A stretch of 53,512 nucleotides of DNA from Candidatus Woesearchaeota archaeon (GTDB lineage: Archaea; Nanobdellota; Nanobdellia; Woesearchaeales; JACPBV01), in assembly GCA_019323195.1 (NCBI GenBank), contig JAHWHQ010000035.1, positions 1 through 53,512 on the forward strand. Reading direction: 5' to 3'. The notes under the pieces were generated by a model that was not told the DNA's origin, searched no databases, and saw nothing but the letters and a program-made list of their open reading frames with translations. Position numbers and translations under genes: made by a program. Below are positions 11,982-48,943 of this stretch, one piece after another (position 1 is the stretch's first letter; every line of letters begins with the position of its first letter).

Positions 11982-12126
11982 TGGGACCTGCGGAATTTGA
12001 ATCCGCGACACCTAGATCTCTGATAATCATCGGCAGATGCCTCATCAGATCTTTTCTGCTCTGGTCTGGAATCTTCAGTTTCACCTTTTTAAAAACTAGT
12101 GCTCTCCCAGGCTGAGCTAAGGTCCC
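11982..12126 (-). tRNA. intron-containing tRNA (isotype unresolved; Lys-UUU or an anticodon-UUA species depending on splice model)
   Basis: The reverse complement gives acceptor GGGACCU/AGGUCCC+A, D arm GCUC-AGCCUGGGA-GAGC and T arm GCGGA-UUCAAAU-UCCGC. Total length is 145 nt, so about 71 nt between CUAGU-UUUUAAA and CUAG-GUGUC must be an intron. Confidence 0.8.
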
Positions 12127-18529: not shown

Positions 18530-19210
18530 TTATTTCTTTGCCATCATGCTTATCATGGCAATCAGCAGCATGAGGTAGCCGATAAGCTGGATACTTTCCC
18601 CAAGGACATAAAAATGCTTTACAATGCCTTCGAAGATGAAGAATACCTGGCTCACCAGCAATGCTAAAAAGGAATACATGACTGTTTTTGCATTTTTGCT
18701 CTTTACCCTTAGATAGTTCTTCTTATAGCCCAGGAAAAGAATTCCAAGCATAAGGAGAAGTGTGATATGGAAGATGATATATGAGGCGCTTACAAGGGTT
18801 GTGGATATTATAAGGAGATATATCAGAAGGATGATGATCTTCCTGTCCTTTATCTTTAAAGAGACCAGGACAAGAAGAAGGAATGCAAAAAGCATGATAA
18901 GCCTCGCGATAGAGACGCCAAGGGCATTGATCCACCTTACGTTGTTTATGACCTGGGAGGTTATGGTCACCAGGCCTACGGTCTCTACCTTTAACTGCTT
19001 TGAATAGACAGGTATTGTAGCAAGTATCTTGCTTACAAAGGCCAGGGCAACAAGGAAAAAGGAGGCTGCGAAGTAGAAGTACTTCTTCTGCGAGGTGTAC
19101 CTGTAGCTCTTATAGGCAAAATAGCTTATCATAAGGCCGACGATGACAGAAACTAGGTCAAAGATATAATCAATGCCGTAAAACCATGTAGGCCCGAATA
19201 CATATGCCAT
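18530..19210 (-). CDS. polytopic membrane protein, hypothetical
   Basis: 226-aa ORF with about 6 TM helices. Confidence 0.55.
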   Translation of the reverse strand: MAYVFGPTWFYGIDYIFDLVSVIVGLMISYFAYKSYRYTSQKKYFYFAASFFLVALAFVSKILATIPVYSKQLKVETVGLVTITSQVINNVRWINALGVSIARLIMLFAFLLLVLVSLKIKDRKIIILLIYLLIISTTLVSASYIIFHITLLLMLGILFLGYKKNYLRVKSKNAKTVMYSFLALLVSQVFFIFEGIVKHFYVLGESIQLIGYLMLLIAMISMMAKK

Positions 19211-24514: not shown

Positions 24515-24928
24515 TCAATCTAATCTTTTTTTGATAATGGCTTTTAGTTTTTTAACTATTGCCTGAATATCTTTTATTTTCCTTTTAATGTAATCCTTGT
24601 CGATAAAAAATCCATCATATGCAATCTTATTTCTTGTTATCCTCAGATCATCAATCAAAGAGACCTCATACTCGTTAAACTCTTTATAATTGGATTGGAG
24701 GTATTCAACTAATTTTTTATGTGCTCCTTCACCATAAGTCTTGTAGCCGTCAAGTAGAAGAACAATACTCATTAACTCTCTGATTATATCATAATATTCT
24801 TTTGTTACATTGGAACTAAATTTAGCTACATCAATGATCTTAATCATCTCTATAGTGGTATCAACCATCTTTAGGATAGATTGTGCTTTTTCCTTATTTG
24901 GTGTTATCTTTATCATACCTTCTTCCAT
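24515..24928 (-). CDS. HEPN domain protein (toxin partner of the MNT gene)
   Basis: 137-aa all-helical protein with the R(I)TRNKIAY motif region. Overlaps the upstream nucleotidyltransferase gene by 16 nt. Confidence 0.65.
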   Translation of the reverse strand: MEEGMIKITPNKEKAQSILKMVDTTIEMIKIIDVAKFSSNVTKEYYDIIRELMSIVLLLDGYKTYGEGAHKKLVEYLQSNYKEFNEYEVSLIDDLRITRNKIAYDGFFIDKDYIKRKIKDIQAIVKKLKAIIKKRLD

Positions 24929-25497
24929 TTTGACATTTGCACCCTTAAGTACCCTTTTAACTTATCACCATTGATAATATTATTCTTTAATTCTTCGCTG
25001 ATCTTATTGAAGTTCTTTTCAAAGAATAAATTTATCTTTCTGTTTAATTCTTTCTCGTATTTGCCTAAATCCAGCTTCTTTTCATCACATTGCAAATATA
25101 AATCAATATCACTACCTTTAATATCTTCTCCTTTTGAGGCAGAACCAAATAAAACTATCACATCAGGCATACATTGCTCATTTAAATAATTCAACAAACC
25201 AGATTCTTCTATGGATATAATCATATCTATTTTCTTAAGAAATCTAAATACTTCACTTGCCCTATTTGCCCAGTAAACAGGATAACCATGTATTCTATGT
25301 TTAGAGCTTATAACCAAAGGAGCGCCATATCCCTCATCTTTGCATAATTCATTTAGGTAGTTCTTTACTGAAGTTGGAGCCAAATCTGTTTTTCTGCTAA
25401 TCTCTCTGAGTTGAAAACCTGCTCCCTTAGGGTTTGGATCATCAAAAAAGACCTTCAATATTTTCCACTTGTTATACTTTTGTAACATATGTAACAA
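24913..25497 (-). CDS. nucleotidyltransferase (MNT) domain protein with N-terminal wHTH
   Basis: The LFGSASKGEDIKGSDIDL motif (GS-x9-DxD) preceded by a wHTH-like N-terminus. Confidence 0.75.
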   Translation of the reverse strand: MLHMLQKYNKWKILKVFFDDPNPKGAGFQLREISRKTDLAPTSVKNYLNELCKDEGYGAPLVISSKHRIHGYPVYWANRASEVFRFLKKIDMIISIEESGLLNYLNEQCMPDVIVLFGSASKGEDIKGSDIDLYLQCDEKKLDLGKYEKELNRKINLFFEKNFNKISEELKNNIINGDKLKGYLRVQMSKWKKV

Positions 25498-25602: not shown

Positions 25603-27966
25603 TCAACCTTCCAGCAGAATCATTATCTCTTCCTTTTTCTGGGTTTTTCTCAGCTTCTCTGCCAGCTCCTTGTTGACAGGGGCTATCCAGTCAGCGAAGT
25701 CGTTCTTTTCCGCATTTACGTGCTTGCTTAATACGTCATCGTCCATGGTGTTGATGGAGTCGATAAGCTCCTGGATGCTCCTTACGGTTGTTCCGTTCTT
25801 GAGCTTTAAGGGGGCAAGCTCAGGGCCTTTCTTGGCAGGCGGAGCTGCTGCTGCAGGCGCTGGAGCCCCTTTAGCTGCTCCAGCCGCAGCACCTGCCTTT
25901 GCTTTTGCCTGCTCATTTTTCTCGTATTCCTCCCTTGCCTTCTTCGCCTTTTCGAACTCCTTCTTCAGCTCCTCTTCAGCTACGAGCTTGATCTTTCTCT
26001 TCTCAGGCTTTTTCCCGAGCTTTTTCCAGTGGTCCTCCAGCCTTGGCTTGAGGCCTTCAAGGTAGATGTCTACCATGTTAAATGATCCTGACTTTACCTT
26101 GTCAAGGGCCATCTTAAGCTCGAGCTTGATGTCAAATACGTCTATCCCCTCTTTTTTAAGCTGCTCGATCTGGTAGTCCAGGTCATCTATCAGGTCGTTG
26201 TACTTGTTGTAGTTCTCAAGCTCGTCGTCGCTCAGCCTTGCATGCTCATGCATAAGGGGCCTGAAGGTGACGAAGTAAGGGTTGCCGCGGTTATAGGCGG
26301 AGTTCTCTATCATTCCTGTGCCAGTGGATGCCTTAAGCAGGGACTGGAGCATATAGCCGCCGTACTTGTTCTTGATCCTGTCCAGGTCACCCTGGTCACG
26401 CGTCCTCATCTGGATCTCGGTGTTGATGTTGGCTTTTGTCTCGCCGACAAAGTCTGTCAGTACCTGGCTGATAAGCATCAGGCCTACGCCCCATTTCCTG
26501 AACTCCCTTGCAGCCCTCTCTATCTGGATGAAGCCCTGGCCGGAGCCGCCGAACTTGGGCAGGAGCCTGTGGACCTCGTCGAATATTATCATGAGCTTGA
26601 GCTCAGGGGACTCAGGAAGGTTGGCATGGAATACCTCCCTCATGGTGTTTGCGACCAGTGTATCTATGTCCCCCGGATCGAGCCTGTTGATGGCGAAGGA
26701 GTGGATCTCGCCGGGGATCATGTATTTCTTTATGTCTATGATCTGCCTTGCATCCATGATCTGGTGGATATTGCCGTTGAAGGCCTTTGCATCTGTCTTC
26801 TTCATGCCGAATTTTGGGTAGAGGGCTATCATCTTCTTGTTCTGGCATTTTCTCAGGAAGCCTGTCCACTGGGCAGTAGGGTCAAAGACGATGACAGCGA
26901 CATTCTTCTCTAAAGCGCCTTCTATAAGGACCTCTGCCGAGACTGTCTTGCCTCCTCCTGTCGAACCGGCAATAAGGGTGTGCATCGTCAGCTGGTCGAT
27001 GTCAAAAAAGGCGTCTTTGTTCGTTTCGGCGATTTTTCCAATCTTTACTGACCTTGGGCCGGCTTTAGGCAATAATGAGAAATCAAGCTTGCCCTTGTAC
27101 CTTTTCCGCTTTTCCATCTGTCTCTTATAGACCAGGTAGATTACAGTGAACAGAGTTATGACGCATATGCTGAATATCACCCATCTCAGCGGAAGGATGC
27201 CAAGGATAAAATAGTCCATCACCTTTTCAGCTACAAAGAACCTGATGCTTGAATGGGAGGTTAAATCCAGATACTCTGCCTTTACAGTAAGGACATACTC
27301 TCCAGGCCTGACAAAGTCAGGAATGTCGAATTTCTTGAGCAGGGTTGCGGAGGTCTCTATGAATATGCCCTCGCTTTCGCTGAGGAATGACTTGTTCAGC
27401 TCATAGGTCTTTACATCCCCAAGCTTATCTATCGAATAATGCAGCGTGACATTAAACGCTTTTTCAACCAGAAGGTTCTGAATGTCAATACGGTACCTGA
27501 ATGAATCACCGAGGTAGACCCTTTTTGTGAGTGCTTCAAGCTCCATGCTGATGGCCTCTACGGAGGAGCCTAACGAGTCGACATTGAGGATGACGGGTAT
27601 CGCCTCGCTAATGCCGCCGGAGATGGCTAATGTGCCGTTATAGAACCCCAGGTGGTCTGCAAAGAAGGTTATGTTTATGGCATTCTCCGAGTCATGCCCT
27701 ATGTTCATCCTCTGGGTGCTTAGCTGGAGGTATTCTGAGACATTGCCGCTCAAGGAGAAGTATACGCTTATCGTTTCAGCCCTGTTGTTCTTTATCCTGA
27801 GGGGGACATCCTTGTAGTTGCCTATCTTCATCCTTTCCCTCATGGAACTGGATGAGATCTCATAGTCCCTTGTCTTTATCTGGGCTGAAACATTCCCTAT
27901 GGAGCAGAGGGCGAAAACTGCAAATATCAGGAAGTATGCTAGACCTATCACCCTTTTTTTGCTCAT
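25603..27966 (-). CDS. membrane-anchored HerA/FtsK-like (DUF87-type) ATPase with an extracytoplasmic N-terminal domain
   Basis: Signal/TM MSKKRVIGLAYFLIFAVFALCSIG, about 230 aa outside, then a second TM (RWVIFSICVITLFTVIYLVY). Walker A GSTGGGKT and Walker B MIIFDEVHRL. An Ala/Pro-rich linker precedes a small C-terminal domain. Confidence 0.8.
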   Translation of the reverse strand: MSKKRVIGLAYFLIFAVFALCSIGNVSAQIKTRDYEISSSSMRERMKIGNYKDVPLRIKNNRAETISVYFSLSGNVSEYLQLSTQRMNIGHDSENAINITFFADHLGFYNGTLAISGGISEAIPVILNVDSLGSSVEAISMELEALTKRVYLGDSFRYRIDIQNLLVEKAFNVTLHYSIDKLGDVKTYELNKSFLSESEGIFIETSATLLKKFDIPDFVRPGEYVLTVKAEYLDLTSHSSIRFFVAEKVMDYFILGILPLRWVIFSICVITLFTVIYLVYKRQMEKRKRYKGKLDFSLLPKAGPRSVKIGKIAETNKDAFFDIDQLTMHTLIAGSTGGGKTVSAEVLIEGALEKNVAVIVFDPTAQWTGFLRKCQNKKMIALYPKFGMKKTDAKAFNGNIHQIMDARQIIDIKKYMIPGEIHSFAINRLDPGDIDTLVANTMREVFHANLPESPELKLMIIFDEVHRLLPKFGGSGQGFIQIERAAREFRKWGVGLMLISQVLTDFVGETKANINTEIQMRTRDQGDLDRIKNKYGGYMLQSLLKASTGTGMIENSAYNRGNPYFVTFRPLMHEHARLSDDELENYNKYNDLIDDLDYQIEQLKKEGIDVFDIKLELKMALDKVKSGSFNMVDIYLEGLKPRLEDHWKKLGKKPEKRKIKLVAEEELKKEFEKAKKAREEYEKNEQAKAKAGAAAGAAKGAPAPAAAAPPAKKGPELAPLKLKNGTTVRSIQELIDSINTMDDDVLSKHVNAEKNDFADWIAPVNKELAEKLRKTQKKEEIMILLEG

Positions 27967-28058
27967 CTTTTTTCTTATGGTTTATAAAGTTTTAAACTCT
28001 TTGAGTTCTAAACCGATTAAAAATCTTCTATTTTTGATAGTTTAAAAATGAAATTTTA

Positions 28059-31000
28059 TTATGCTGCTATCTTCCTGTGCAGCTCATTGCACCTTTGGAC
28101 TACGCCTGACTTGAATTCCTGCGGGATCTTCTTATATATATGGGAGACCTGCCTGTAGATCAGGGATGCCTCCTTCCGCTGGTTGTTCTCAAGGCTGAAA
28201 TTGGCCTTGTCAATAAGCTTGTTAATATGGAAGACATCTAATTTATTTGAGAGGAGGGTTACCTTCTCATAAACCTCTTTTTTAATCTCTTTCGGAAGCT
28301 GCCTGAAAAACTCATTGATGCTCCTGTAGGCTGCCTTTGCCTTTTCATACTCGCTGTTCTGCAGATGGGCCAGGCCCTCCTCGAGGTGCCTGTTTATCTC
28401 TTTTATGTGCTTCATAGAGCCCCTGCCTTTGACCAGGAGCCTTATCTTTTTAAATCCTCCGCTGAATCCAATGTATGTGAGGGCAAGTATTATGATTATT
28501 ATCACCTCTATAACCAGTCTTGCATTGTTGGGCTGGATGATCCTTAACGGAAGATCGCCAAGGACCGCGAAGCCGATAACGGGGTTCCTTTTGGTCAGAT
28601 CATCAGAAACCAGGATGGACTTTATCTCCCTGGCTTTGTCCATATCTATCTTCTTCCTGATATAGTAGGAGTATTTTTCTGCCGGCATATCAAGCTTGAT
28701 TATGGGGTCTTCAAGGATGGTGGCATACTCAAACTGCGCATTTATATGGGAGGTGTTGGGAGCTATGCTTTTTGGGATCCACTCTATAAGGGCTGTATCC
28801 TTCAGATCATCTTCTGCCATGATATCTTTTTCTATCAATGTTATATCCCCCTTGTCCCCTGAGATATACTCCGCTTCTATATAGCTTGTTTTTGTCGTTA
28901 TCTTGACCAATTTCTGCAGCTCCTGGTTATAGGCCGCGTAAGACTCCATTTCCTTGTTTTTGTACTTCTTTTTCATGAACTCCAGGAATGTGAAGGATAT
29001 ATTTGTTATGTCCTCTTTGCCGGGGTAATCGATGAATTCCTTTGACTCAGCAACCCTGATAGCCTTTATGGTGCGGCTTTTTATGCCCCTTATCCTGTCA
29101 TATATGGAGTTTCTTAGCTCCTCTTCCCCGCTCTGGTTCAGCCTTCTCCATATGATGTTGTGAAGGTCGCGCTTTGCCATCTGAAGCTCTTTTTTTGACT
29201 TTTCAAGGTGTTTTTCCAGGCCAAGGGCGGCGGCAGCGTCCTTCTCTTTCTTGTCCAGGTAATTAAGGTCTGACAGCGAGCTGTCTATGATCTTTATTGC
29301 ATTATCTATCGAGATGTCCTCTTCTGTGACAACTGTTATGTTGACATGGAATCTTTTGGTCTCGCTTATCCTTGAGTTTCCGAACCTGTCAACGCATTCA
29401 ACCTTCCACTGGTAATCCCTGTTCTCCAGGTTTTCTATGGTAAATGAGTTCTCGCTTCCGCTTGCTATGTTCTCTTTATGCCCCTGCTCTACCCACCAGC
29501 TGTCGCCCATGTTGGCGTATAGTGTGCAGTTGACGCTGGAACGGTCAAATACCTTGTAGGTTATGACAGCGCTGCCCTGGGTGATGGCTGCATCATTTTC
29601 AGGGCCGAACAGTTCTATGACAGGATCCTCGTTATCGAGTTCATATATGGGCAGCTTTACCCCTATCGTTGCGCTGCTTTTTATGTCGGTGGTGTTGGAG
29701 AATGAGCTATAGCCGTCTTTCTCTACGATGAGCTTACGGCTGCCTTTATTTACCTCAAATGAGGCCTTGCCTTCGCTGCTTGTATTTTTCTTGACATAAT
29801 CGAATTCAACATCCGCGTTTTCAATCGCCTGGCCGGATTCGTTCTTTACTATGATGGTGACGTTGAATACCTCTCTTACTGTTATCGCACTTGCAGCTGA
29901 CCTCTTCCATTCTTCCCAGGCTATGGTGAGGTTTGCGGTGTAGGTCCCGTTTGAGCTGTAGGTGTGGGATGGTCCTGAAGCGGATGATGAAGAGCCGTCG
30001 CCGAAATCCCAGCTATAGCTGCTTCTGGGGCTTGTATTGCCGCTTGCAGATGCAGTGAACCTTATCGTTTCACCCCTGTCTATAGCGGTTGCGTTTGAGC
30101 TGATGCTCAGGATTAGGGGGTTTCCTGAGGTGTCATTAACATAGAAGAAGATGCTCTTGTTCTCGCTGTGGCTCATATAATGCATCACTGCATCTATCGT
30201 GTAGTTCCCCGGGGAGTTGATGTTCTGCAGGGCTTTTATGACCCATATCATAAGGCCGGGTGAATAAGGCGTTATAAAGTCGCTTTCCACTATGCTGCCT
30301 TCGAGAAGGACAGTGAGGTTTACCATGGAGTTGGCCCTTGATATTACGGTTATGGAGACGTCTTCCCCTAGTTCATAGTGGGTTTTATCAGTGCTTATGT
30401 TGAACCCTATGCAGGAAGGGCATGAGCCGCCGCAGTCAATGCCCTGCTCATCTCCGTTTTTTATCCCGTCTGAGCAGGAAGGCAGGAAGGTAAAGTTTAT
30501 GCTGTAGCTTATAATCCTGTAGTTTCCCTGCATGTCGCTTATGTTTATCGTGAGGTTGTTTAGGCCGGTTTCAACTTCTATGCTGAATGTACTGGCCTTT
30601 TCCCAGCCCAGGCTCAGGGTTGTGGGATCTTCATTATTTATGCTGTGTGATATGCTGCTGTATTCATCGGAAGATATCGTTATCTCGACAGCACCTGATG
30701 TTCCGTTTATTCCGGATACTGGACCAGGGCTTAACTGCATGCCTCCTGCTGTGGCATTTATACCAGGGGCAGTTGAGTCGTTTACTGTAAAATAATGGAT
30801 GTGGTTTGTTATGTTGGAACTGTTGTCCATAAGGTAGATGGTTATGTTGTGCAGGCCGTTTTTTATCACGCCATATTCTAATGAGCCGTTTAGTTTTGAT
30901 GAAAAGGAGTTCCCTTCCACTGAGGGTTCGGCATACCTGTCATCAAATAGGTAGCCTGCGCTTACTGTTATATTCGTTGTAAAATTAAGATAAACATCTT

Positions 31001-32144
31001 CCCCGCTTTCAAGAGAACTGTCATTCTCAGGGCTTATTACATCAAGGTTTATCGTTGAGGTGTTCAGGACCAGTATTACTGAGGAGAAGTGGGGTATGAA
31101 GACCACTACTTTTTCTCCTTCCTCGATGTAGCAGCTTTCTTTTTCATCGCTGCACATCTTTATCGGTGAGCACTGGTATAGGTCATTGCAGTACATGACA
31201 CCGCTGTAGGCTGCGTCTTTGATGTCAAACTCCACAATGCCGTCATAGCTTTCTTCATCTATTATGCCATCCATGCCCTTAAGTGAGATGGACTTTTTCG
31301 GGATAAGGCGCATGTCTTTTATGCGCCTGCTAGCTACATTGTCTTCTGCATCTAATGATACCTTTTCAAGGTTCTGCCAGTTCAGGTTTTCTTCTTTGAA
31401 ATTGTTTATGGAGGCTGTTACGCCGTCGTCAGCATAAAACTTCATCTTAAGGGGCCTGTTCTTAAGGCTGCCGCCTACCTTGTTGCCTTTTGTGTCTGTA
31501 AGGTCTATTTTCTTGAGCCTGTTCTTCTCTTTTATCTTCTCGAACGAGCTTAGCGTGGCGAGGTAGCCTTTGTCTGATGTTGTGTTGCTGGATACTGCAT
31601 CGCTGAAGTAGTTGTTGTCAAGATAGACTGCATACAGGTAGTCTTTTTCGCTGTAATATATGTCAGAGTAAAGGTTGTTTATGTCCAGGCTGTAGTCAAG
31701 ATAGATGACCTGGGCATAAACCTTGTTGTTCCTGGAGGAGCCGTACTTGCTGTACTGTAGATATAACGGCTCATCCCATTCCTGCTTTTCGGGGTAGAGG
31801 TCTATGAATGAGCAGCATCTGGAGCTGCCATGGCATAGGGGGGTGGTCCTGCCATTGTCCACTGAATAGACGTCCCATCTTGTGCAGAGATTTTTTTGCT
31901 CAGCATCCCAGCTGAACCCTGTATCCTCTACAGTGAAGTCTATAGCAGCACTGTCAGATTCGATGCCGTTGTCATCGCTGTCCCAGACAGAGCCTGACTT
32001 GTATTCCAGCTCAATCGAGATTGTTTTTGACGGGTTGGATTTTGTGAATTCCACATTCGATACGAGGAGGAGGGCCAGCATGAAGGCCAGAATAAAGGCT
32101 CTTTTTTTGCTTATCAAACCCGGAAAAAACTGTTTTGCGTTCAT
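28059..32144 (-). CDS. giant (1361 aa) surface protein with a PKD domain, C-terminal TM and helical cytoplasmic tail
   Basis: N-terminal signal/TM. PKD signature YSWDFGDGSSSSASGPSHTYSSNGTYTANLTI. A Cys-rich segment SCSDGIKNGDEQGIDCGGSCPSC. TM LVIEVIIIIILALTYIGF near residue 1190. Confidence 0.8.
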   Translation of the reverse strand: MNAKQFFPGLISKKRAFILAFMLALLLVSNVEFTKSNPSKTISIELEYKSGSVWDSDDNGIESDSAAIDFTVEDTGFSWDAEQKNLCTRWDVYSVDNGRTTPLCHGSSRCCSFIDLYPEKQEWDEPLYLQYSKYGSSRNNKVYAQVIYLDYSLDINNLYSDIYYSEKDYLYAVYLDNNYFSDAVSSNTTSDKGYLATLSSFEKIKEKNRLKKIDLTDTKGNKVGGSLKNRPLKMKFYADDGVTASINNFKEENLNWQNLEKVSLDAEDNVASRRIKDMRLIPKKSISLKGMDGIIDEESYDGIVEFDIKDAAYSGVMYCNDLYQCSPIKMCSDEKESCYIEEGEKVVVFIPHFSSVILVLNTSTINLDVISPENDSSLESGEDVYLNFTTNITVSAGYLFDDRYAEPSVEGNSFSSKLNGSLEYGVIKNGLHNITIYLMDNSSNITNHIHYFTVNDSTAPGINATAGGMQLSPGPVSGINGTSGAVEITISSDEYSSISHSINNEDPTTLSLGWEKASTFSIEVETGLNNLTINISDMQGNYRIISYSINFTFLPSCSDGIKNGDEQGIDCGGSCPSCIGFNISTDKTHYELGEDVSITVISRANSMVNLTVLLEGSIVESDFITPYSPGLMIWVIKALQNINSPGNYTIDAVMHYMSHSENKSIFFYVNDTSGNPLILSISSNATAIDRGETIRFTASASGNTSPRSSYSWDFGDGSSSSASGPSHTYSSNGTYTANLTIAWEEWKRSAASAITVREVFNVTIIVKNESGQAIENADVEFDYVKKNTSSEGKASFEVNKGSRKLIVEKDGYSSFSNTTDIKSSATIGVKLPIYELDNEDPVIELFGPENDAAITQGSAVITYKVFDRSSVNCTLYANMGDSWWVEQGHKENIASGSENSFTIENLENRDYQWKVECVDRFGNSRISETKRFHVNITVVTEEDISIDNAIKIIDSSLSDLNYLDKKEKDAAAALGLEKHLEKSKKELQMAKRDLHNIIWRRLNQSGEEELRNSIYDRIRGIKSRTIKAIRVAESKEFIDYPGKEDITNISFTFLEFMKKKYKNKEMESYAAYNQELQKLVKITTKTSYIEAEYISGDKGDITLIEKDIMAEDDLKDTALIEWIPKSIAPNTSHINAQFEYATILEDPIIKLDMPAEKYSYYIRKKIDMDKAREIKSILVSDDLTKRNPVIGFAVLGDLPLRIIQPNNARLVIEVIIIIILALTYIGFSGGFKKIRLLVKGRGSMKHIKEINRHLEEGLAHLQNSEYEKAKAAYRSINEFFRQLPKEIKKEVYEKVTLLSNKLDVFHINKLIDKANFSLENNQRKEASLIYRQVSHIYKKIPQEFKSGVVQRCNELHRKIAA

Positions 32145-32425
32145 CTGGATACGGCCTCTTTTTTTATCTCTTTCTTTATGCTTTCAAGCTCGCTGATTAT
32201 CTCCAGCTTTACGAGCTTTTCACTCCTTTTCCTGAGCTCTTCTTTTATGTCCTGCTTCAGTTTCCTGAGCTCCTCCAGTTCAGGGTTCCTGGAGCTTAGC
32301 CAGCGGTCCCTTACGATGCTCCTTATCTCCTCGCTTATGTCCATGTAATGGTCCTTTTCAGCTGACCTTTTCAGCTCTGATAAAAGTGATCCAGGAAGCC
32401 TTACAGAGACCATTACCTCATCCAT
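32141..32425 (-). CDS. ribbon-helix-helix protein with coiled-coil tail
   Basis: Starts at the internal ATG (MDEVMVSVRLPGSLLSELKRSAEKDHYMDISEEIRSIVRDRW...). Its stop overlaps the start of the giant gene by 4 nt. The track's 29-aa N-terminal extension overlaps the upstream RHH gene. Confidence 0.6.
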   Translation of the reverse strand: MDEVMVSVRLPGSLLSELKRSAEKDHYMDISEEIRSIVRDRWLSSRNPELEELRKLKQDIKEELRKRSEKLVKLEIISELESIKKEIKKEAVSR

Positions 32426-32588
32426 CCTGCACCTCTTTCTCCCTTGCTGCGAGGTATTTCCTGCTGTAATCGCGGATAGCCTCTGACCTGCTCTTGTAAA
32501 TCCCGCGCTCAATCAGGGAATCCAGCCATAGAACTATCTCTTTAGGAAGCCTTACGTTTAATGTTTGGATCTCTATTGTATTTGTCAT
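32418..32588 (-). CDS. ribbon-helix-helix (CopG-like) protein
   Basis: 56-aa ORF not in the track: MTNTIEIQTLNVRLPKEIVLWLDSLIERGIYKSRSEAIRDYSRKYLAAREKEVQDG. This is a classic CopG pattern. Overlaps the next RHH gene by 8 nt. Confidence 0.6.
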   Translation of the reverse strand: MTNTIEIQTLNVRLPKEIVLWLDSLIERGIYKSRSEAIRDYSRKYLAAREKEVQDG

Positions 32589-41449: not shown

Positions 41450-43012
41450 TCAACCCTGGCTTTTCTGCCTGTTGAAGTCATTAGCCCTCTGGACGTCTAC
41501 AGGGTAAAGGTCCTTGTCTACTATCACTGTGCTCTTTACCCTGTTCTTGCCCTCTGCCTTTGCCGTGTACAATGACTTGTCTGCCTCTTTTATAAGCTCA
41601 ACTGCAGAGATGGACCTGTCCATGCATGTAATCAGGCCGGCGCTTATCGTTATCGTTTTCAGCGGCTGGTCTTCCTTGCCGAAGAAGCTGTTCTCTTCTA
41701 TCTTTTTCCTTATCTTCTCTATCATGTCAAAGGCAACATTGCTGTTGGTGTCTAATGATATTATGATGAACTCCTCTCCTCCGTACCTGCCGACAACGTC
41801 GCTCTCCCTTGTCTCGTCTTTTATTATCTTTGCTATATCCTTCAGCAATGAATCGCCCCTTATATGGCCGTGGGTGTCGTTGTAGTGCTTGAAATCGTCT
41901 ATGTCCATGAGGGTTATGGAGAGGGGGTTCCTCAGCCTGACGCTTCTTATCATCTCCATCTCAAGGATGTTCATGAAGAATTCGCGGTTGTAAAGGCCTG
42001 TCAATTTGTCGGTTATCGCCTTGTTCTTTATCTTTTCAAGGTTCTGGGAGTTTAATACGGCCATGGAGATCTGGTCAGAGAGAACCCAGAGGAAGTTCAG
42101 GTCGTCTTTTTTTGTCTTATTTGTGGGGTAGAGGTAGAATATGACGCAGCCCATCATGTTGCTGTTTATGATAAGGGGTATGGCTATGAGGCTGTGCGGG
42201 AGGTAGCTTATGCCCTTGTTCCTGAACCGTGGGTCGTCCTGGAGGCTGTCTACCTTTACTATCTTTTTTGAGCTTAGTATCTCTTTTTCTATTATCTCCT
42301 CTATCTTGTCATAGCCGGTCTTCTCTTTTTTTGCTTTATCGCTGCTGAATATTATAACAGAGCAGTCTTCGATGTATATTATCTTTCTTATGTTCTCCTT
42401 GACCTTTTCCAGGGTCTTTGACAGCTCGGTGACATGGCTTACTGACTGGGCTACCTTGTGGAGGATGTTCAGCTCCTCGATCCTTCTTTCACTCATCTTT
42501 TTCTGGTGCACCAGCTCAGGCAGTGTGGTGGACAGAAGGGACAGTATCCTGGAGTATTCCTTTATCTTTTCCTCCTTGGTTGCGGGGATGGTGCTTATGT
42601 TCTCGAGCAGCTCTTCGCTTTCGATGCCTATCTCCCTGCTGAGGCTGTCGAATACTGCCTGGTCTATGCGCTCTTTGAGGATAGCGCCGCAGATGACTGC
42701 GCCAACCTGCTCGCCCTTTACTTTTATGGGGGCTATTATGTTGAGAAGGCCTGCATGGCAGTAGTATAAGATGAGCTTCCTGCCCTCTTTTTCCAGCCTT
42801 TCCATGAACTTCAGCCTGCAGCTGCGGCATGATGAAAGGCCCTTGTCTTTTGACTTTATGACCTGGCAGAAGAAAGGGAACTCTTTTGAGCTGGAGATCT
42901 CCTCGCCTTTTCTGTCGACTGTGTAGACGACTGTTTCGATGGATTCTGAGAAATTGTCCTGGAGGCTGTTCCATAGTTCCATGTCAAGGGTCTCGCTGAT
43001 TTTCCCGTCCAT
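41450..43012 (-). CDS. PocR-GAF-GGDEF diguanylate cyclase
   Basis: The N-terminal PocR-like FFCQVIKSKDKGLSSCRSCR...YYCHAGLLNIIAPIKVKGEQVGAVICG is followed by a central GAF-like region. The C-terminal GGDEF domain has RYGGEEF and an RESD (RxxD) I-site 5 residues upstream. Confidence 0.85.
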   Translation of the reverse strand: MDGKISETLDMELWNSLQDNFSESIETVVYTVDRKGEEISSSKEFPFFCQVIKSKDKGLSSCRSCRLKFMERLEKEGRKLILYYCHAGLLNIIAPIKVKGEQVGAVICGAILKERIDQAVFDSLSREIGIESEELLENISTIPATKEEKIKEYSRILSLLSTTLPELVHQKKMSERRIEELNILHKVAQSVSHVTELSKTLEKVKENIRKIIYIEDCSVIIFSSDKAKKEKTGYDKIEEIIEKEILSSKKIVKVDSLQDDPRFRNKGISYLPHSLIAIPLIINSNMMGCVIFYLYPTNKTKKDDLNFLWVLSDQISMAVLNSQNLEKIKNKAITDKLTGLYNREFFMNILEMEMIRSVRLRNPLSITLMDIDDFKHYNDTHGHIRGDSLLKDIAKIIKDETRESDVVGRYGGEEFIIISLDTNSNVAFDMIEKIRKKIEENSFFGKEDQPLKTITISAGLITCMDRSISAVELIKEADKSLYTAKAEGKNRVKSTVIVDKDLYPVDVQRANDFNRQKSQG

Positions 43013-43061
43013 AAGGTTTCTGTATGCCGCTTTTTTATAAATATTGCGCTGGCTTTATGCA

Positions 43062-43100
43062 GAAATAAAAAATCCCCGCCCTAAAGGGCAGGTATTTTTT
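43062..43100 (-). terminator. hairpin + T-tract (bidirectional look) downstream of small ORF 43211..43375
   Basis: CCCCGCCCT-AAA-GGGCAGG flanked by an A-run on the left and TATTTTTT on the right. On the minus strand the stem is followed by AUUUUUUAUUU. Confidence 0.4.
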
Positions 43101-43210
43101 AAGTCTCAAACTGTGTTATTAATTATAGTAGTAGAGTATGAAACCCAGTTTGAGCAATAATCTATAGGTATGATTAAGAAGGATCTTTTATGCATGATAA
43201 TGGGGGTCTT

Positions 43211-43375
43211 TCAGCCAAGCTTCTCATAGGTTCCGGTAGAGTGCCCACAGGGCTGCTTGTTCCATGAGCAGTTGTTTATGCAGCATCCGAGGTGGACTGC
43301 GCCTTCCTTATGGCCGCATAATAGGACAGAGTCCGGGCTGCTCTTGAAATCCCCATCGCATATCTTACACTTCAT
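43211..43375 (-). CDS. small Cys/His-rich zinc-finger-like protein
   Basis: 54-aa ORF not in the track: MKCKICDGDFKSSPDSVLLCGHKEGAVHLGCCINNCSWNKQPCGHSTGTYEKLG. An SD-like GGGTGAT lies 6 nt upstream of the ATG. Confidence 0.5.
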   Translation of the reverse strand: MKCKICDGDFKSSPDSVLLCGHKEGAVHLGCCINNCSWNKQPCGHSTGTYEKLG

Positions 43376-43452
43376 TTACGATCACCCTCTTTTAACCAGT
43401 ATATACCAGGATTTTCTTCGTTTCATTATTTAAACTTTTCGGAATAATTCAG

Positions 43453-43474
43453 TAGTTAAGTGGTTAATTAATTA
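43453..43474. repeat. 22-bp direct repeat, copy 1 (TAGTTAAGTGGTTAATTAATTA)
   Basis: Perfectly repeated at 43539..43560. Contains the palindromic TTAATTAA core. Confidence 0.7.
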
Positions 43475-43538
43475 TAGAAGTTTGTTATTTATTTAATCCT
43501 TGCGTTTGTCTTTTGGATGTTCTTTTTTTGATCTGTAT

Positions 43539-43560
43539 TAGTTAAGTGGTTAATTAATTA
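43539..43560. repeat. 22-bp direct repeat, copy 2
   Basis: Identical to 43453..43474, with 86-bp spacing, in a divergent intergenic region. Confidence 0.7.
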
Positions 43561-43675
43561 GTTAAATTTATTAAATAAATAATTTGTTAAGGGTTTTAGT
43601 TGTTTTGCAGGGCTTGTTTTGCTTGAAGAGGTTATTATGGTTACCTTTAAATAAGGCGGCGGAAATCCGTTCTTT

Positions 43676-44591: not shown

Positions 44592-44843
44592 ATGAACAGG
44601 ACAGAAAGGTTCAGGCTGGAAAGGATATTCTGGGACTGCGTAAGGCTTGAAAGGGAAACCCGCCTTTCAGAGTACGATGCAGCGCAGGGTGACCTGTGCA
44701 TAAGGCTGCTGAGGAAGAGAAGGCAGCTGTTCAGCCTGAAAAGGATAACAAGGATAAGATGCAGGGGCTGCGGCAGGGTCTACAACAACAGGAAAAACTG
44801 TGTTTTCTGCGACTGTAAGGATATGGAGTTCCTGAGGGAGTAA
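44592..44843 (+). CDS. hypothetical protein with C-terminal CxxC...CxC zinc-ribbon-like motif
   Basis: 83 aa with RCRGCGRVYNNRKNCVFCDC. Translationally coupled to the next ORF. Confidence 0.5.
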   Translation: MNRTERFRLERIFWDCVRLERETRLSEYDAAQGDLCIRLLRKRRQLFSLKRITRIRCRGCGRVYNNRKNCVFCDCKDMEFLRE

Positions 44844-44844
44844 G

Positions 44845-45099
44845 ATGCGAAGGTATATTTTATTAACACTTCTGGCAATATGCTGTATCTTATCTATGTG
44901 CTATATAACTGTCTTGGATGAAGGGCTGAATGATCTTGCAGCCCATAAGATGAAGGCTGGGTTTAGGAACCTTAACCTTACAGAGAAGCAGGAAGCGGTG
45001 GATAAGGGATATTTCTACTCATGTTCAGAGGTGGAGGACTTCTGCAGGGAGAACAGGAATGCTTCTGGCTGTGTCCGGTATTGTTTGGGGGGTGGGTGA
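44845..45099 (+). CDS. small secreted/membrane Cys-containing protein
   Basis: 84 aa with N-terminal hydrophobic segment YILLTLLAICCILSMCYITVL. ATG is 1 nt after the upstream stop. Confidence 0.45.
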   Translation: MRRYILLTLLAICCILSMCYITVLDEGLNDLAAHKMKAGFRNLNLTEKQEAVDKGYFYSCSEVEDFCRENRNASGCVRYCLGGG

Positions 45100-45253
45100 G
45101 TGGTGAGATGGTTTTATAAAATGGATATATCAATATACCAAAAATGTTATTTCATTTCTTTTTATTGTATTTCAATTTAATCTATTTAAAGATGATTACC
45201 ATTTATGAAATTTTTAAGAAAGGTTTATTAAGGTAGAAAAAATAGAAAAAGAT

Positions 45254-46024
45254 ATGGAACTAAACCTGTATCAAAAAGAAGTTTTCAATACTTACAAAAG
45301 TAATTCCCAAAGAATAAGGATTTTAACTGAAAGTTGGATGGAAAATAATATGTTCTGTCCTGTTTGTCTAAACTTAAGTATTAATTCACTGCCAAATAAT
45401 ACGCCTGTTGCTGATTTTTTCTGTCCAAAATGTAATGAACAATTCCAATTAAAAAGCCAAAAAAATAGTTTTGGTAAGAGAATACTTGATGGTGCTTTCC
45501 AAAAGATGATGGAATCAATCAAACAAAACTTAAGACCTAATTTTTTCTTGCTACATTACAACTTAGATTATTATGTGAATAATCTTTTTTTAATACCTTA
45601 CTTCTTTTTTACTGAATCAATTATTGAAAAAAGAAAACCATTATCCAAAAAAGCAAGAAGAGCAGGATGGATTGGTTGCAATATATCCTTAGATAAACTT
45701 CCTCCTGAAGGAAAGATTAGAATCATAGAAAATGGAATATTATATGAAAAGAAATTAATAGCAGACCAATGGAAAAAGATAAGCTTCATTAAAGATACTC
45801 CATTACCTGAAAGAGGATGGACAGTAGATGTGTTAAGAGTGGTCCATTCTTTAGGAAAAAAGGAATTTGCACTCAAGGAAGTTTATGAATCTGAAGAAGA
45901 ACTTGCCAAAGAACATCCAAATAACAATTATACCAAAGCTAAAATAAGGCAGCAACTACAGATATTAAGAGATAAAGGAATATTAAGATTCAAGAAAAGA
46001 GGAAACTATCTTGTTATGAGATAA
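45254..46024 (+). CDS. DpnI-like (methyl-directed type IIM family) restriction endonuclease
   Basis: 256 aa. YKSNSQRIRILTESW, CPVC...PVADFFCPKC..QFQLKS, RRAGWIGCNI and C-terminal wHTH KAKIRQQLQILRDKGILRFKKRGNY. These closely match my recollection of S. pneumoniae DpnI (254 aa). Confidence 0.75.
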   Translation: MELNLYQKEVFNTYKSNSQRIRILTESWMENNMFCPVCLNLSINSLPNNTPVADFFCPKCNEQFQLKSQKNSFGKRILDGAFQKMMESIKQNLRPNFFLLHYNLDYYVNNLFLIPYFFFTESIIEKRKPLSKKARRAGWIGCNISLDKLPPEGKIRIIENGILYEKKLIADQWKKISFIKDTPLPERGWTVDVLRVVHSLGKKEFALKEVYESEEELAKEHPNNNYTKAKIRQQLQILRDKGILRFKKRGNYLVMR

Positions 46025-46098
46025 TTCTGACTAGTAACACGTTACCAAATCCCGTAACCAAGTTTTAAATATAGCTTACCTAAGATCTTAAAGATCCA

Positions 46099-46917
46099 AT
46101 GCATCAATTGGGTTTATTGCCTTACTATCCAACTTACTCTTCAAAAACATATCATAAGATCTATTTTGGTGATTGCCGTGAGATTCTTCCAAAGATTCCA
46201 TCTGAATCCATAGACCTAATATTCGCAGATCCTCCCTACAATATGTCTAAGAAGAAGGGGCTGGGGTGGAAGTACTCAAAACATGTTACAATGCAGGAAG
46301 AATGGGATATGTTCTCTAAGGATGATTATTTTCAGTTTAACAAAAACTGGCTTAAAGAGGCGTTAAGGGTTTTGAAACACGGCGGAAGCTTATGGATCTC
46401 CGGCAGCTTTCATAATATTTATCAGGTTGGTTTTATATTGCAGCATATTGAAGAGGTAAAGATAAATAATTCCATCGTCTGGTTTAAGCCTAATGCCCAG
46501 CCAAATATAACATGCAGAATGTTTACAGAAAGTACAGAGCATTTAATCTGGGCATCAAAAAACGGAAAGGGCAAAAGATGGACATTCAACTATGAGGACA
46601 CGAAAAATAAGATTGTGGACCCATGGTCGCCTAAGGGAAAACAGGCAAGAAATGTTTGGTCTATACCTTTAACCTCAAAAAAAGAAAAATGGGCAGGCCC
46701 TCACCCAACACAAAAGCCAGAAGAACTATTGAGAAGGATAATTCTAGCATGCAGTAACAAGGGAGAAACTGTTTTGGATCCTTTTGTTGGTTCCGGGACG
46801 ACCTCTGTTGTCGCTAAATCACTAGGCAGAAATTCAATCGGGATTGAGAAGGACAGGAAAAATCTGGATATTATTAAGAAGAGGCTGGGGCAGGAGATCC
46901 TAGAGATGGAAGGTTAA
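46099..46917 (+). CDS. DNA methyltransferase, beta-class (N6-adenine/N4-cytosine), DPPY type
   Basis: Motif IV IFADPPYNM is N-terminal. Motif I DPFVGSGTTSVVAKSLGRNSIGIEKD is C-terminal, preceded by HPTQKPEELLRRII. Confidence 0.85.
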   Translation: MHQLGLLPYYPTYSSKTYHKIYFGDCREILPKIPSESIDLIFADPPYNMSKKKGLGWKYSKHVTMQEEWDMFSKDDYFQFNKNWLKEALRVLKHGGSLWISGSFHNIYQVGFILQHIEEVKINNSIVWFKPNAQPNITCRMFTESTEHLIWASKNGKGKRWTFNYEDTKNKIVDPWSPKGKQARNVWSIPLTSKKEKWAGPHPTQKPEELLRRIILACSNKGETVLDPFVGSGTTSVVAKSLGRNSIGIEKDRKNLDIIKKRLGQEILEMEG

Positions 46918-47377
46918 TTAAAACTTAAAGTGCGAAGCACTTTGGATCCCCTAATTCTACATTTAGAAATTCTGTGAAGGTATACTATTGTCCGAAGGAT
47001 AAGGGATTTGAGACTTTTTTCCACTTAGCGAATACAATATTTCTAGAACAAAAATGAAGGGGACAGTTTGGATTAAAAAATTAAGAAAAAAGGGTTATCA
47101 TTTTTTCTACGCAGTAGACATAACCATTCGGCTATGCCGTATATCTTTAAACTACCCTGATCTATTTAAATATTTCTATTTTTTGAACTTCCTAGGAACA
47201 AGATTATCAAAGTTGAATAATTTGAAGTTTTTACCCACTTTGATATATGATTCAATATGCATATATATTCTTCAATTTCAAGAAATCTTCTGGTTGTCAA
47301 GAGTATCTTTCCTGTCGACAGGAAGATATTCTTAATATTTAAATCTTTTTATTTTGATGGCTTATTCAGTCTAAAAA

Positions 47378-47395
47378 ACGAAAGATTTAAATATT
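47378..47395 (+). promoter_or_regulatory. BRE/TATA-like promoter element
   Basis: ACGAAAGATTTAAATATT lies about 90 nt upstream of the ATG at 47468. It is nearly identical to ACGAAAGATTTATATATA at 50861. Confidence 0.4.
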
Positions 47396-47467
47396 AATTA
47401 TAGTTAATATAATTACTATAGCAACTATAACTAATATTGCTAATATAATAAAAACTATTGAAATAAG

Positions 47468-48211
47468 ATGACTCCAAGACCCAGCGTTATAAAACCAGAT
47501 TCGAGAGAAAATAAGACTACAATTCAAGTAGATAAAGATACCAAGATGATTTTGACAAAAATAGGTCTAAAAGGTGAGACTTATAATCAAATAATTAAAA
47601 GACTGATTACTTACTTTGAAGAACATGTTAATCAATCTGAAAAATTTGTTGAATCTATTGAAGAAAAACACTATTCTGGTCAGATTCAAATCGGTGAAAA
47701 TTTAGTATTATCAAAATATGACCGAGTTACTATATCAATAAAAGATCAAATCAATGTACAAGAACTATATTTATCAAGTCCAACAATAACTCTTGAAGCA
47801 ACTTATAATAAACCATTCAAGAAGGAAGATGAAATCTATCAAATTGATTTAAAGATAGATAAAGTTATTTTTGACAATGAAGCATACAGCCCTAAAGAGT
47901 TTTTTGGAGTTTTACAAAAAGATATAGTCTATTGTAAAGAATTTGTTTATTATTATTTGAGGTCTATTCTTGAAGTAATAAAGATAGAGTTTAAGAAATC
48001 AAATTATTTTTTTAAAGAGTATCATGATTATTTTGATTTGGCAAGATGGAGAACTTTTTTATTGAATTCCAGACTTAGTCCAGAAATTCTTTCTAATGAT
48101 GTTGAAAGTATATTATCAGATCTAAAAAATGAAAAAACTAACAATAAATTAATTGAAGATGTTAAAAATTCATATTATATAAAAATAAAAGAATTTGGGA
48201 GATATGGTTAA
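47468..48211 (+). CDS. hypothetical protein with RHH-like N-terminus
   Basis: 247 aa, AT-rich. The N-terminal TTIQVDKDTKMILTKIGLKGETYNQIIKRLITYFEE looks like a ribbon-helix-helix. Confidence 0.55.
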   Translation: MTPRPSVIKPDSRENKTTIQVDKDTKMILTKIGLKGETYNQIIKRLITYFEEHVNQSEKFVESIEEKHYSGQIQIGENLVLSKYDRVTISIKDQINVQELYLSSPTITLEATYNKPFKKEDEIYQIDLKIDKVIFDNEAYSPKEFFGVLQKDIVYCKEFVYYYLRSILEVIKIEFKKSNYFFKEYHDYFDLARWRTFLLNSRLSPEILSNDVESILSDLKNEKTNNKLIEDVKNSYYIKIKEFGRYG

Positions 48212-48785
48212 TGTGACAGAAGGATTACAATTTTTAAATGAATTTTTTATTAATAAGAAGTTTGAAGTAGAGGATAGTACAATAACACTTGATGAAAGGC
48301 CATCTTTCGATGTAAGATCCGAGGATTATCACTTTAGAGTTGTTATTGCTGAAGTAGTAGACGAAGTTGAGATCTATTATCGAGACATAGCAATAGAAGA
48401 TCATCATAGACAAGATAAACATAAAAAACCCCACCTTCAATTTAAATTACATGCAGACGGAATAGGAAATATTCACATTTTCTTACCAATCAACGATGCT
48501 AAAGACTATAAAAAATATATATTTAGTTTTTTGGATATTATTGGCTCTATTTTAGTCAAAATGGATAATGAGAAAAAGGAATTACAACATAAATTTATGA
48601 GAATGGATAAATTTAAGGAAATTGAAGGAATGGGAGATAATATCAAGAAAATTGTTTGCGAGAGTTATAAACAAGGAAAATTAAAACTTTTAACTGTAGA
48701 TAGAGAAACAAGAGTAATTGATGGTGAGTATCTAAAACGCATTAAAGGAATACCTCAAATAGAACCTTTTTTTGAGAAATTATAA
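48195..48785 (+). CDS. hypothetical protein
   Basis: 196 aa. Overlaps the upstream gene by 17 nt (coupled). No motif recognised. Confidence 0.5.
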   Translation: MGDMVNVTEGLQFLNEFFINKKFEVEDSTITLDERPSFDVRSEDYHFRVVIAEVVDEVEIYYRDIAIEDHHRQDKHKKPHLQFKLHADGIGNIHIFLPINDAKDYKKYIFSFLDIIGSILVKMDNEKKELQHKFMRMDKFKEIEGMGDNIKKIVCESYKQGKLKLLTVDRETRVIDGEYLKRIKGIPQIEPFFEKL

Positions 48786-48930
48786 TTTGATTTTCTTTCC
48801 TTATGAAAAATAATAATTTCTTTTTCAAACAAAAAGACTCTATAACTCCTTCTATTTGTTCTAACCTCCAATAAAAAAACATCCAGGGTGAAGTCAAACC
48901 TAACCGCACCCTTTCAAAAAAACCTTTCAT
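48742..48930 (-). CDS. small hypothetical protein (doubtful)
   Basis: 62-aa ORF whose ATG is preceded by a very strong SD (AAGGAGGTGATAT-ATG), 14 nt downstream of the DHH gene stop. It overlaps the convergent 48195..48785 by 44 nt. Confidence 0.3.
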   Translation of the reverse strand: MKGFFERVRLGLTSPWMFFYWRLEQIEGVIESFCLKKKLLFFIRKENQIIISQKKVLFEVFL

Positions 48931-48943
48931 ATATCACCTCCTT

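Follow-up and report, generated by a model that had tools for sequence, protein, structure and literature searches.

An apparently intact PocR-GAF-GGDEF diguanylate cyclase gene native to a Woesearchaeal archaeon and its candidate DHH/DHHA1 partner

Bacteria use cyclic di-GMP (c-di-GMP) as their main lifestyle switch, and the locus described here raises the question of whether an archaeon, too, owns an enzyme for making it. On contig JAHWHQ010000035.1 (assembly GCA_019323195.1) of Candidatus Woesearchaeota archaeon, of which a stretch of 53,512 nt was analyzed (hereafter called the window), a gene at positions 41450..43012 encodes a protein composed of PocR and GAF sensor domains followed by a catalytic GGDEF domain.

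Neither Haloferax nor Sulfolobus yielded detectable c-di-GMP. According to reviews, the latest of them from 2023, the messenger has not been described or found in any archaeon, and archaeal GGDEF genes are unverified. The presence of such genes was known before: Braun et al. (2021) mention in one sentence over 300 archaeal BLAST hits, many of them from Asgard and DPANN, NCBI already labels several members of the family studied here "diguanylate cyclase," and Methanocella arvoryzae CAJ37382, like the BLAST hits in Asgard and DPANN metagenome-assembled genomes, also represents an uncharacterized GGDEF domain in an archaeal assembly. These earlier reports contain no analysis of family, synteny, residues, or partners, and contamination of archaeal GGDEF matches was left open (Galperin et al. 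2018; Römling 2022). The original prediction for this locus, made from the sequence alone, called archaeal GGDEF genes rare and uncharacterized; the reviews agree that they are unverified, but rarity was too strong a word in view of the hits of Braun et al. and the NCBI labels. What had not been worked out in the literature searched is the native status of these genes, their family structure, their conserved chemistry, and their partner.

Domains, structural model, and active-site residues of the cyclase

The cyclase gene and the parts of it referred to below are the following.

41450..43012, minus strand: PocR-GAF-GGDEF sensor diguanylate cyclase gene, 520 amino acids (aa), an open reading frame (ORF) with an ATG start (Pfam, NCBIfam; AlphaFold model)
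42521..42991, minus strand: PocR sensory domain of PAS/GAF-like fold, residues 8-164 (PF10114)
42056..42328, minus strand: GAF domain, residues 229-319 by Pfam, about 197-300 in the model (PF01590; model secondary structure)
41540..42019, minus strand: GGDEF catalytic domain, residues 332-491 (PF00990; likeness to WspR, GcbC, and DgcB)
41768..41782, minus strand: active site (A-site) GGEEF, residues 411-415, within RYGGEEF 409-415 (read from the sequence)
41798..41809, minus strand: primary inhibitory site (I-site) RESD, residues 402-405, with five residues (VVGRY) between D405 and G411
41453..41539, minus strand: family-specific C-terminal tail 'STVIVDKDLYPVDVQ...', residues 492-520 (sequence comparison)
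43031..43041, minus strand: TATA-like box TTTATAAAAAA, beginning 29 nt 5' of the cyclase ATG

The original prediction placed here an ORF carrying RYGGEEF, with RESD five residues upstream, and this was confirmed at the exact coordinates. The PocR-like and GAF-like sensors that it saw in front of the GGDEF domain both scored above their Pfam cut-offs, at 120.4 bits versus 23.9 for PocR (E value, 8e-35; model positions 2-157 of 162) and 28.2 bits versus 22.4 for GAF, with GAF_2 slightly below its own cut-off. The GGDEF domain covered its full Pfam model (positions 1-161 of 161; E value, 4e-41; 140.9 bits versus 23.8), and the protein matched TIGR00254 of NCBIfam with 164.8 bits versus a cut-off of 37.4 (E value, 1.4e-48).

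Alignment with WspR and GcbC revealed every functional motif, namely, DIDDFKHYNDTHGHIRGD, RYGGEEF, and ADKSLYTAKAEGKNR, with D370, N378, and D387 all lying within DIDDFKHYNDTHGHIRGD, a motif that is aligned likewise in the two bacterial enzymes. The metal, phosphate, and guanine positions are held by D370, K375, N378, D387, R409, E413, E414, and K485. In the PleD numbering of the literature, at an offset of 43, we take D370 to be D327, K375 to be K332, N378 to be N335, and D387 to be D344; E413/E414 presumably correspond to E370/E371, K485 to K442, and the RESD site to RESD 359-362. The columns at the metal, phosphate, and guanine positions were invariant in 24 of 24 close relatives. When motifs were counted over 64 family sequences, GGEEF was present in all 64 and the GTP-binding motif DxDxF..N..GH..GD in 63, and the RxxD I-site at five-residue spacing was found in 46 (72%), as well as in 17 of the 24 close relatives. 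Taken together, these counts are the signature of active enzymes under selection. By every sequence-level criterion, from the A-site to the I-site, the window cyclase is a feedback-inhibited diguanylate cyclase, and the protein is apparently a complete, active c-di-GMP sensor enzyme. The competent look that the original prediction had attributed to the GGDEF domain thus held up, since A-site, metal- and guanine-binding residues, and I-site are all intact in the alignment, with no sign of the degenerate A-site or metal-binding residues that would have spoken against it.

An AlphaFold model of the cyclase monomer, built from 24 relatives, had a mean pLDDT of 84.7. It runs from a PAS-like PocR domain (residues 1-140) through a helix (147-193), the GAF domain (197-300), a second helix (302-331), and the GGDEF domain (332-497) to a short C-terminal element, the GAF domain being flanked on both sides by long helices. 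Neither the model nor the sequence showed a transmembrane segment. The GGDEF domain was 31 to 40% identical to those of WspR, GcbC, and DgcB, with a TM score of about 0.85. With PleD of Caulobacter and WspR of Pseudomonas, the window cyclase shares the GGDEF fold, the GGEEF A-site, the RxxD spacing, and the metal, phosphate, and guanine residues, and the I-site of PleD also reads RESD; it differs from both in its input, which is PocR plus GAF and not a receiver, in its archaeal host, and in the additional, conserved tail (about 29 residues) behind the GGDEF domain. For the whole chain, the top PDB match in Foldseek was the phytochrome-regulated cyclase IsPadC (PDB 5LLW). In both proteins PAS/GAF sensors are joined to the GGDEF domain by a long helix, a layout that by analogy would imply control through coiled-coil register, although the window cyclase has no phytochrome chromophore module and is only about 19% identical to IsPadC.

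Modeled alone, the PocR domain reached a pLDDT of 69, and a fold search returned only generic ligand-binding PAS/GAF folds, with no clue to the ligand. Five of its cysteines (Cys49, Cys62, Cys65, Cys85, and Cys108) are kept in about half of the family and missing in the remainder, which hints at a metal or redox input in the subfamily of the window cyclase. Upstream of the gene, TTTATAAAAAA lies where it suggests a promoter of the archaeal type and a cyclase mRNA with little or no leader.

Archaeal origin of the contig and history of the family

The genome represented by the window is archaeal, more precisely Woesearchaeota/DPANN, and the cyclase gene is native to it. The glycyl-tRNA synthetase (GlyRS) of the contig was 60 to 80% identical to more than 100 clusters, of which all named ones are Woesearchaeota, Nanoarchaeota, or Nanoarchaeia, and archaeal markers stand on both sides of the cyclase gene within this single contig. 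The hallmarks cited in the original prediction were found: besides the TATA-like box, these are a FlaI-like ATPase of 761 aa, which among NCBIfam models matches archaellum FlaI best, with a score below the cut-off, and a tRNA at 11982..12126 (minus strand), detected by Rfam and missed by ARAGORN in bacterial mode. Since this tRNA spans 145 nt against a model of 71 positions, it contains an insertion of about 74 nt, presumably an archaeal intron. No rRNA or ribosomal protein gene is present in the window. The gene order agrees with that of other contigs from Woesearchaeal metagenome-assembled genomes. With a GC content of 0.47 and a GC content at third codon positions (GC3) of 0.67, the cyclase gene resembles the core genes GlyRS, HerA, FlaI, and DHH; GC3 in the DpnI/methylase island adjoining it is 0.16 to 0.42. 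An identical protein with identical neighbors occurs on a separate 16-kb JGI contig, and a marine-sediment run provided Logan contigs that extend over 37597..41956 and 46875..51291 at 100% identity, with no mismatch and an even depth of about 8 to 9, spanning both the GDE_C/cyclase and the island/DHH junctions. The matching composition, the JGI contig, the Logan junctions, and the archaeal markers together make chimerism or contamination very unlikely.

Past reviews nevertheless voiced a contamination worry over archaeal GGDEF matches, and the PocR-GAF-GGDEF architecture does occur in bacteria, so that the gene might be thought to be bacterial DNA, brought in by a binning or assembly chimera or by a very recent transfer without integration into archaeal biology. 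We give this explanation hardly any credence, and it is already contradicted by the present evidence. In addition to the flanking markers, the core-like composition, and the junctions reproduced in independent assemblies, the position of the gene is kept across Woesearchaeal contigs that share just 30 to 52% protein identity, and the best full-length bacterial match among the matches listed is 34% identical. GlyRS, independent assemblies, gene order, and composition thus answer in the negative the question, raised in the original prediction, of a bacterial or chimeric contig.

The cyclase belongs to a family of its own. A word-based search returned about 25 full-length relatives (clusters) at 30 to 52% identity, the named ones being Woesearchaeota or Nanoarchaeota; bacterial proteins either matched over the GAF-GGDEF part only or were longer PocR-(GAF)n-GGDEF proteins. 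A profile search covered 1.84 billion representatives at 50% identity, and about 48 single-stretch full-length members of 463 to 527 aa were among its best 150 matches, with the newly named ones again Nanoarchaeota or Woesearchaeota. A metagenome scan was run with a 6-sequence PocR alignment. After the GGDEF domain, a tail reading '..VIVDKNL..IDVQ.A' is found in the archaeal family, including members without PocR, and was not found in the bacterial relatives compared.

In a full-length neighbor-joining tree of 24 close members and 13 bacterial proteins of the same architecture, a limited bacterial sample, the 24 archaeal sequences grouped apart from the bacterial PocR-(GAF)n-GGDEF sequences, as a clade supported by 183 of 200 bootstraps. 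These bacterial proteins (for example, P0027 from Bacillota, P0039 and L004 from Nitrospiria, and P0052) have the same domain order as the window cyclase and are its likely evolutionary source. They differ from it in being longer (556 to 729 aa, often with two GAF domains), in the weak similarity of their PocR domains to the archaeal family (6 to 75 bits), in having no C-terminal tail, and in their bacterial contexts, that of P0052 being typical, with an HD-GYP-type gene nearby. The full-length tree speaks in favor of an old archaeal clade and not of a recent transfer, the choice that the original prediction had left to phylogeny. In the history that we favor, the entry of the family into Woesearchaeota lies far back in time, with bacteria, in which this domain order also occurs, as the most likely source. 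Against this history count the neighbor-joining tree of the GGDEF domain alone, which did not resolve the family (core clade in 12 of 100 bootstraps), and the method and limited bacterial sample of the full-length tree, as a consequence of which neither a bacterial origin nor a single acquisition is proven. Judged by its conserved residues, the family shows that a catalytically intact cyclase has long been kept under purifying selection in at least one archaeal lineage.

Extra GGDEF genes stand beside a family member in four related loci (L001, 8832..9881; L088, 7544..9904; L094, 1140..2066, minus strand; L092, 2399..4312, minus strand). Two of them look canonical (RLGGEEF and RYGGEEF), and the other two have altered specificity positions, NYAGDEF with QHLAGS in L001 and RWGGEEF with DHIKGN in L088. 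L088 encodes a PfkB-GAF-GGDEF fusion; in L001, PfkB and GGDEF are separate genes.

A candidate phosphoesterase partner and the reach of a possible circuit

A second gene of the window bears on how the product of the cyclase might be removed.

48944..50044, minus strand: DHH/DHHA1 phosphoesterase gene, 366 aa (Pfam DHH and DHHA1; same strand as the cyclase)

The original prediction had merely noted this gene as lying 6 kb away. The gene is real by Pfam, and its significance was understated, since it proved to be a conserved and once-fused partner of the cyclase. Its product retains the catalytic motifs DxD, DHH, and GGH intact. In no fewer than six lineages, namely, the window and L093 (with a 128-bp gap), L102, L086, L085, and L099, the gene is found upstream of the cyclase gene and in the same orientation, the cyclase of L099 being without PocR. 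The two genes remain paired even where their surroundings switch from arvABC/ychF to glycogen/PKD genes. With 25 clusters, the DHH subfamily is narrow; four of the clusters match cyclase clusters in the size of their longest contig, suggesting that they lie on the same contigs. P0002/P0245 is one such pair and is borne out by L102, though on a shorter contig. In P0299, a metagenomic protein of 871 aa, DHH/DHHA1 and PocR-GAF-GGDEF are fused in frame: residues 4-368 are 37% identical to the window DHH protein (E value, 5e-88), and residues 382-871, which follow a short linker (about 13 residues), match the window cyclase at 30% identity, tail included (E value, 6e-81).

The bacterial DHH/DHHA1 enzymes PggH, NrnA, and GdpP are established hydrolases of pGpG or cyclic dinucleotides, which makes a degradative role plausible for the archaeal protein. 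PggH and NrnA are stand-alone DHH/DHHA1 proteins of about 310 to 370 aa that complete c-di-GMP turnover in bacteria, and the window protein is like them in size and layout, although neither gave a significant profile-search match to the archaeal DHH family, which is nearest to the RecJ type. We regard the neighboring DHH/DHHA1 protein as the best candidate for a c-di-GMP/pGpG-degrading partner of the cyclase, a proposal with roughly even chances of being correct. Several observations weigh against it and would suit a genuine cyclase next to an unrelated RecJ-like nuclease or nanoRNase whose adjacency was simply inherited, with degradation either absent or performed by some other enzyme, for example, the HD protein of L001 and L088. 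The closest solved relatives of the DHH protein are archaeal RecJ, RecJ2, and GAN and not NrnA, PggH, or GdpP; two distant DHH relatives (32 to 34% identity) occur elsewhere without a GGDEF neighbor; roughly every second cyclase locus is without a DHH gene nearby, L001, L087, L088, L092, L094, and L096 lacking an adjacent one and two of these having an HD gene instead; and the P0299 fusion is a singleton on one 13-kb contig. An inherited adjacency of this kind is possible rather than probable in our judgment: it has to accommodate a pair that is kept despite changing flanks, a narrow subfamily whose longest contigs match those of the cyclase clusters in size, an in-frame fusion with a short linker, and the known activities of PggH, NrnA, and GdpP on pGpG or cyclic dinucleotides.

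To our knowledge, GdpP/YybT is the only well-known kind of protein that joins GGDEF and DHH/DHHA1. Its order is PAS, degenerate GGDEF, and DHH/DHHA1, with GGDEF N-terminal to DHH/DHHA1, and its DHH/DHHA1 domain reportedly cleaves cyclic dinucleotides (Rao 2010). In contrast to GdpP, the archaeal GGDEF domain is canonical, and the DHH protein, which is RecJ-related, is usually encoded by a separate upstream gene and is N-terminal in P0299; the window cyclase is not a single membrane-anchored GGDEF-DHH/DHHA1 protein of the GdpP type.

Loci without a DHH gene offer a second candidate hydrolase, a conserved HD-domain protein of 283 aa encoded upstream of the GGDEF gene pair (L088, 6680..7531; L001, 6945..7679). 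Its HD domain is generic and not of the HD-GYP type, and it has no informative PDB relative.

In agreement with the original prediction, no EAL, HD-GYP, or PilZ family match was obtained with Pfam in any window ORF of at least 120 aa. Pfam likewise gave no MshEN match, regular expressions for PilZ, MshEN, and HD-GYP motifs found nothing in a real gene of the window, and no EAL, HD-GYP, or PilZ gene is among the annotated genes of L001, L003, L085 to L088, and L102. Rfam returned tRNAs only, and no c-di-GMP (GEMM) riboswitch, for the window and for six related loci. PADLOC gave no defense-system match for the cyclase or the DHH protein, and a defense role for the two was dropped.

On balance, we think it quite probable that the locus holds a native Woesearchaeal gene encoding a cytoplasmic sensor diguanylate cyclase. 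This reading is tempered by the loss of the I-site in 28% of family members, by the lack of RNA-seq runs with the cyclase gene, and by the lack of a receptor and of a canonical phosphodiesterase at the loci searched, as a result of which a complete pathway is not demonstrated. One could instead suppose that the GGDEF domain is active and that its product or role is other than c-di-GMP signaling, be it another (cyclic) dinucleotide, GTP sensing, or phage defense in the manner of Cas10/CD-NTase-type palms. The altered specificity positions QHLAGS (L001) and DHIKGN (L088) in second GGDEF genes near family members, a weak, sub-threshold Pfam match of the cyclase to Cas10 palm2, and the missing receptor would fit such a role, which we nonetheless consider improbable. 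N378 and D387 (presumably N335 and D344 of PleD) are invariant, and the serine of Hypr-type cGAMP synthases was not found at the guanine-specifying position, where D387 is an aspartate in all 24 aligned relatives; moreover, the product-inhibition I-site is present in 72% of members, PADLOC found no match, and the context is one of housekeeping and cell-surface genes and not of defense.

Sequence, domains, conserved residues, taxonomy, family, synteny, and the P0299 fusion are observations. For the native diguanylate cyclase that we favor, the enzymatic activity, product, dimer mechanism, DHH role, and output that we infer can be put as follows. The cyclase would dimerize through its long interdomain helices, as the model and solved bacterial cyclases suggest. 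The N-terminal PocR domain and the GAF domain would read a signal, perhaps a small molecule or a redox or metal cue, the latter in the cysteine-rich subfamily to which the window cyclase belongs. This signal would set the register of the helix ahead of the GGDEF domain, and two active sites loaded with GTP would thereby come together and form c-di-GMP; binding of c-di-GMP to the RESD I-site would then turn the cyclase off. After its entry into Woesearchaeota the family would have been inherited and diversified within the lineage, and the archaeal RecJ-derived DHH/DHHA1 protein may degrade c-di-GMP, pGpG, or both, in place of EAL or HD-GYP enzymes. The neighborhoods weakly suggest an output in cell-surface/attachment proteins, glycogen turnover, or the ArvA vesicle operon. 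Put together, this would amount to a self-contained Woesearchaeal c-di-GMP circuit, with a GGDEF enzyme of bacterial ancestry, the DHH/DHHA1 protein standing in for EAL/HD-GYP, receptors other than PilZ, MshEN, or riboswitches, and attachment/surface, glycogen, or ArvA vesicles as possible targets in host-dependent cells; we advance this picture tentatively, being more inclined to doubt it than to believe it. Were the DHH/DHHA1 protein indeed the phosphodiesterase, a signaling pathway would have been rebuilt from parts of two domains of life. The use of c-di-GMP by archaea is now testable on defined genes encoding two small soluble proteins, and through them one may learn how attachment, storage, or vesicles might be controlled in DPANN cells, which are ultra-small and depend on hosts.

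Gene neighborhoods and other features of the window

At most related loci, the cyclase gene has arvA(oapA)-oapB-oapC on one side and, on the other, a ychF-type GTPase gene of convergent orientation. The arvABC genes make up the vesicle-forming GTPase operon of archaea, for which vertical inheritance in DPANN has been reported. The contents of the slot between arvABC and the cyclase are variable and comprise a PhoU/AbrB regulator, DHH/DHHA1, secreted glycoprotein paralogues, the HD protein, a PfkB kinase, and second GGDEF genes. The window itself has no arvABC, ychF, or HD gene; in its subclade, a w255-DHH-cyclase block adjoins glycogen genes and an RHH-PKD-HerA cluster. At L102, the locus of the closest relative, w256, w248, DHH, and cyclase are followed by GDE_C and glycogen synthase on the opposite strand and then by RHH, a 91-aa gene, PKD, and HerA. 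The window is collinear with L102 over 30 kb, with two insertions in the window, one of which is a low-GC island. The island and the genes on the far side of the DHH gene are as follows.

44800..48800: low-GC restriction-modification island (Pfam; GC, GC3)
45254..46024: DpnI-like endonuclease, GC 0.30 (island)
46099..46917: N6/N4 DNA methyltransferase (island)
47468..48211 (DUF7557 match) and 48195..48785: two island ORFs, GC 0.25-0.29
50051..50818, minus strand: secreted/membrane-anchored protein, 255 aa, rich in N-x-S/T sequons (translation)
50945..51889, plus strand: AbrB/MazE-PhoU-type regulator (Pfam; tblastn and locus gene lists)

The island separates DHH from the cyclase in the window genome only and looks like a recent insertion because it is absent from the collinear L102, where the DHH-cyclase spacing is 340 bp. 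The AbrB/MazE-PhoU regulator is divergent from the w255-DHH(-cyclase) unit, a position that is kept in L085, L086, L087, and L099.

The 255-aa sequon-rich gene ends 6 bp before the DHH gene. Members of this family have about 250 aa, a hydrophobic N terminus, about 12 N-x-S/T sequons, and no Pfam match. Further copies lie at 6690..7472 and 8583..9416 of L085 and at 258..1823 of L102; one or two copies precede DHH in the window and in L102, and copies flank DHH in L085 (tblastn on L085, gene list of L102).

Glycogen synthase and the GDE_C amylo-1,6-glucosidase flank the cyclase in the window subclade in three arrangements (window, 32825..41436; L085; L097; L102). c-di-GMP binds the debranching enzyme GlgX in Streptomyces (PMC9530166). 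The glycogen link stays a weak lead, since its basis is adjacency and convergent transcription in one subclade. Farther on, a minus-strand cluster at 25603..32512 combines a small ORF (32141..32512) with genes for a PKD-domain protein of 1361 aa (28059..32144) and a HerA/DUF87 ATPase of 787 aa that has weak TrwB-like matches (25603..27966). The cluster is conserved, being found together with an RHH gene in L003, L085, and L102 as well, and may be a surface, secretion, or DNA-transfer apparatus.

The intergenic stretch 5' of the cyclase (43031..43583) contains a 45-nt direct repeat whose copies, 43453-43497 and 43539-43583, are 80% identical, and an ORF of 54 aa at 43211..43375 (minus strand), cysteine-rich and zinc-ribbon-like, after which comes a hairpin with a T-run at 43092..43075.

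Elsewhere in the window, a nucleotidyltransferase-domain gene (24913..25497) overlaps a gene for a 137-aa partner without a Pfam match (24515..24928), both on the minus strand. The pair matches the PADLOC candidate families PDC-M05A and PDC-M05B and is likely a toxin-antitoxin or defense module. Two stand-alone membrane sensor-like modules without an output domain are encoded at 11126..11809 and 18530..19210 (both minus strand), one having a HisKA_7TM match and the other a weak, sub-threshold match to MASE3/DUF7521. Finally, a large cysteine-rich repeat protein with a signal-like N terminus and repeated 'SCSDTDGGNVIATFGTTSGYYGG...' units is encoded from 51993 to 53512 (plus strand) and runs past the end of the window.

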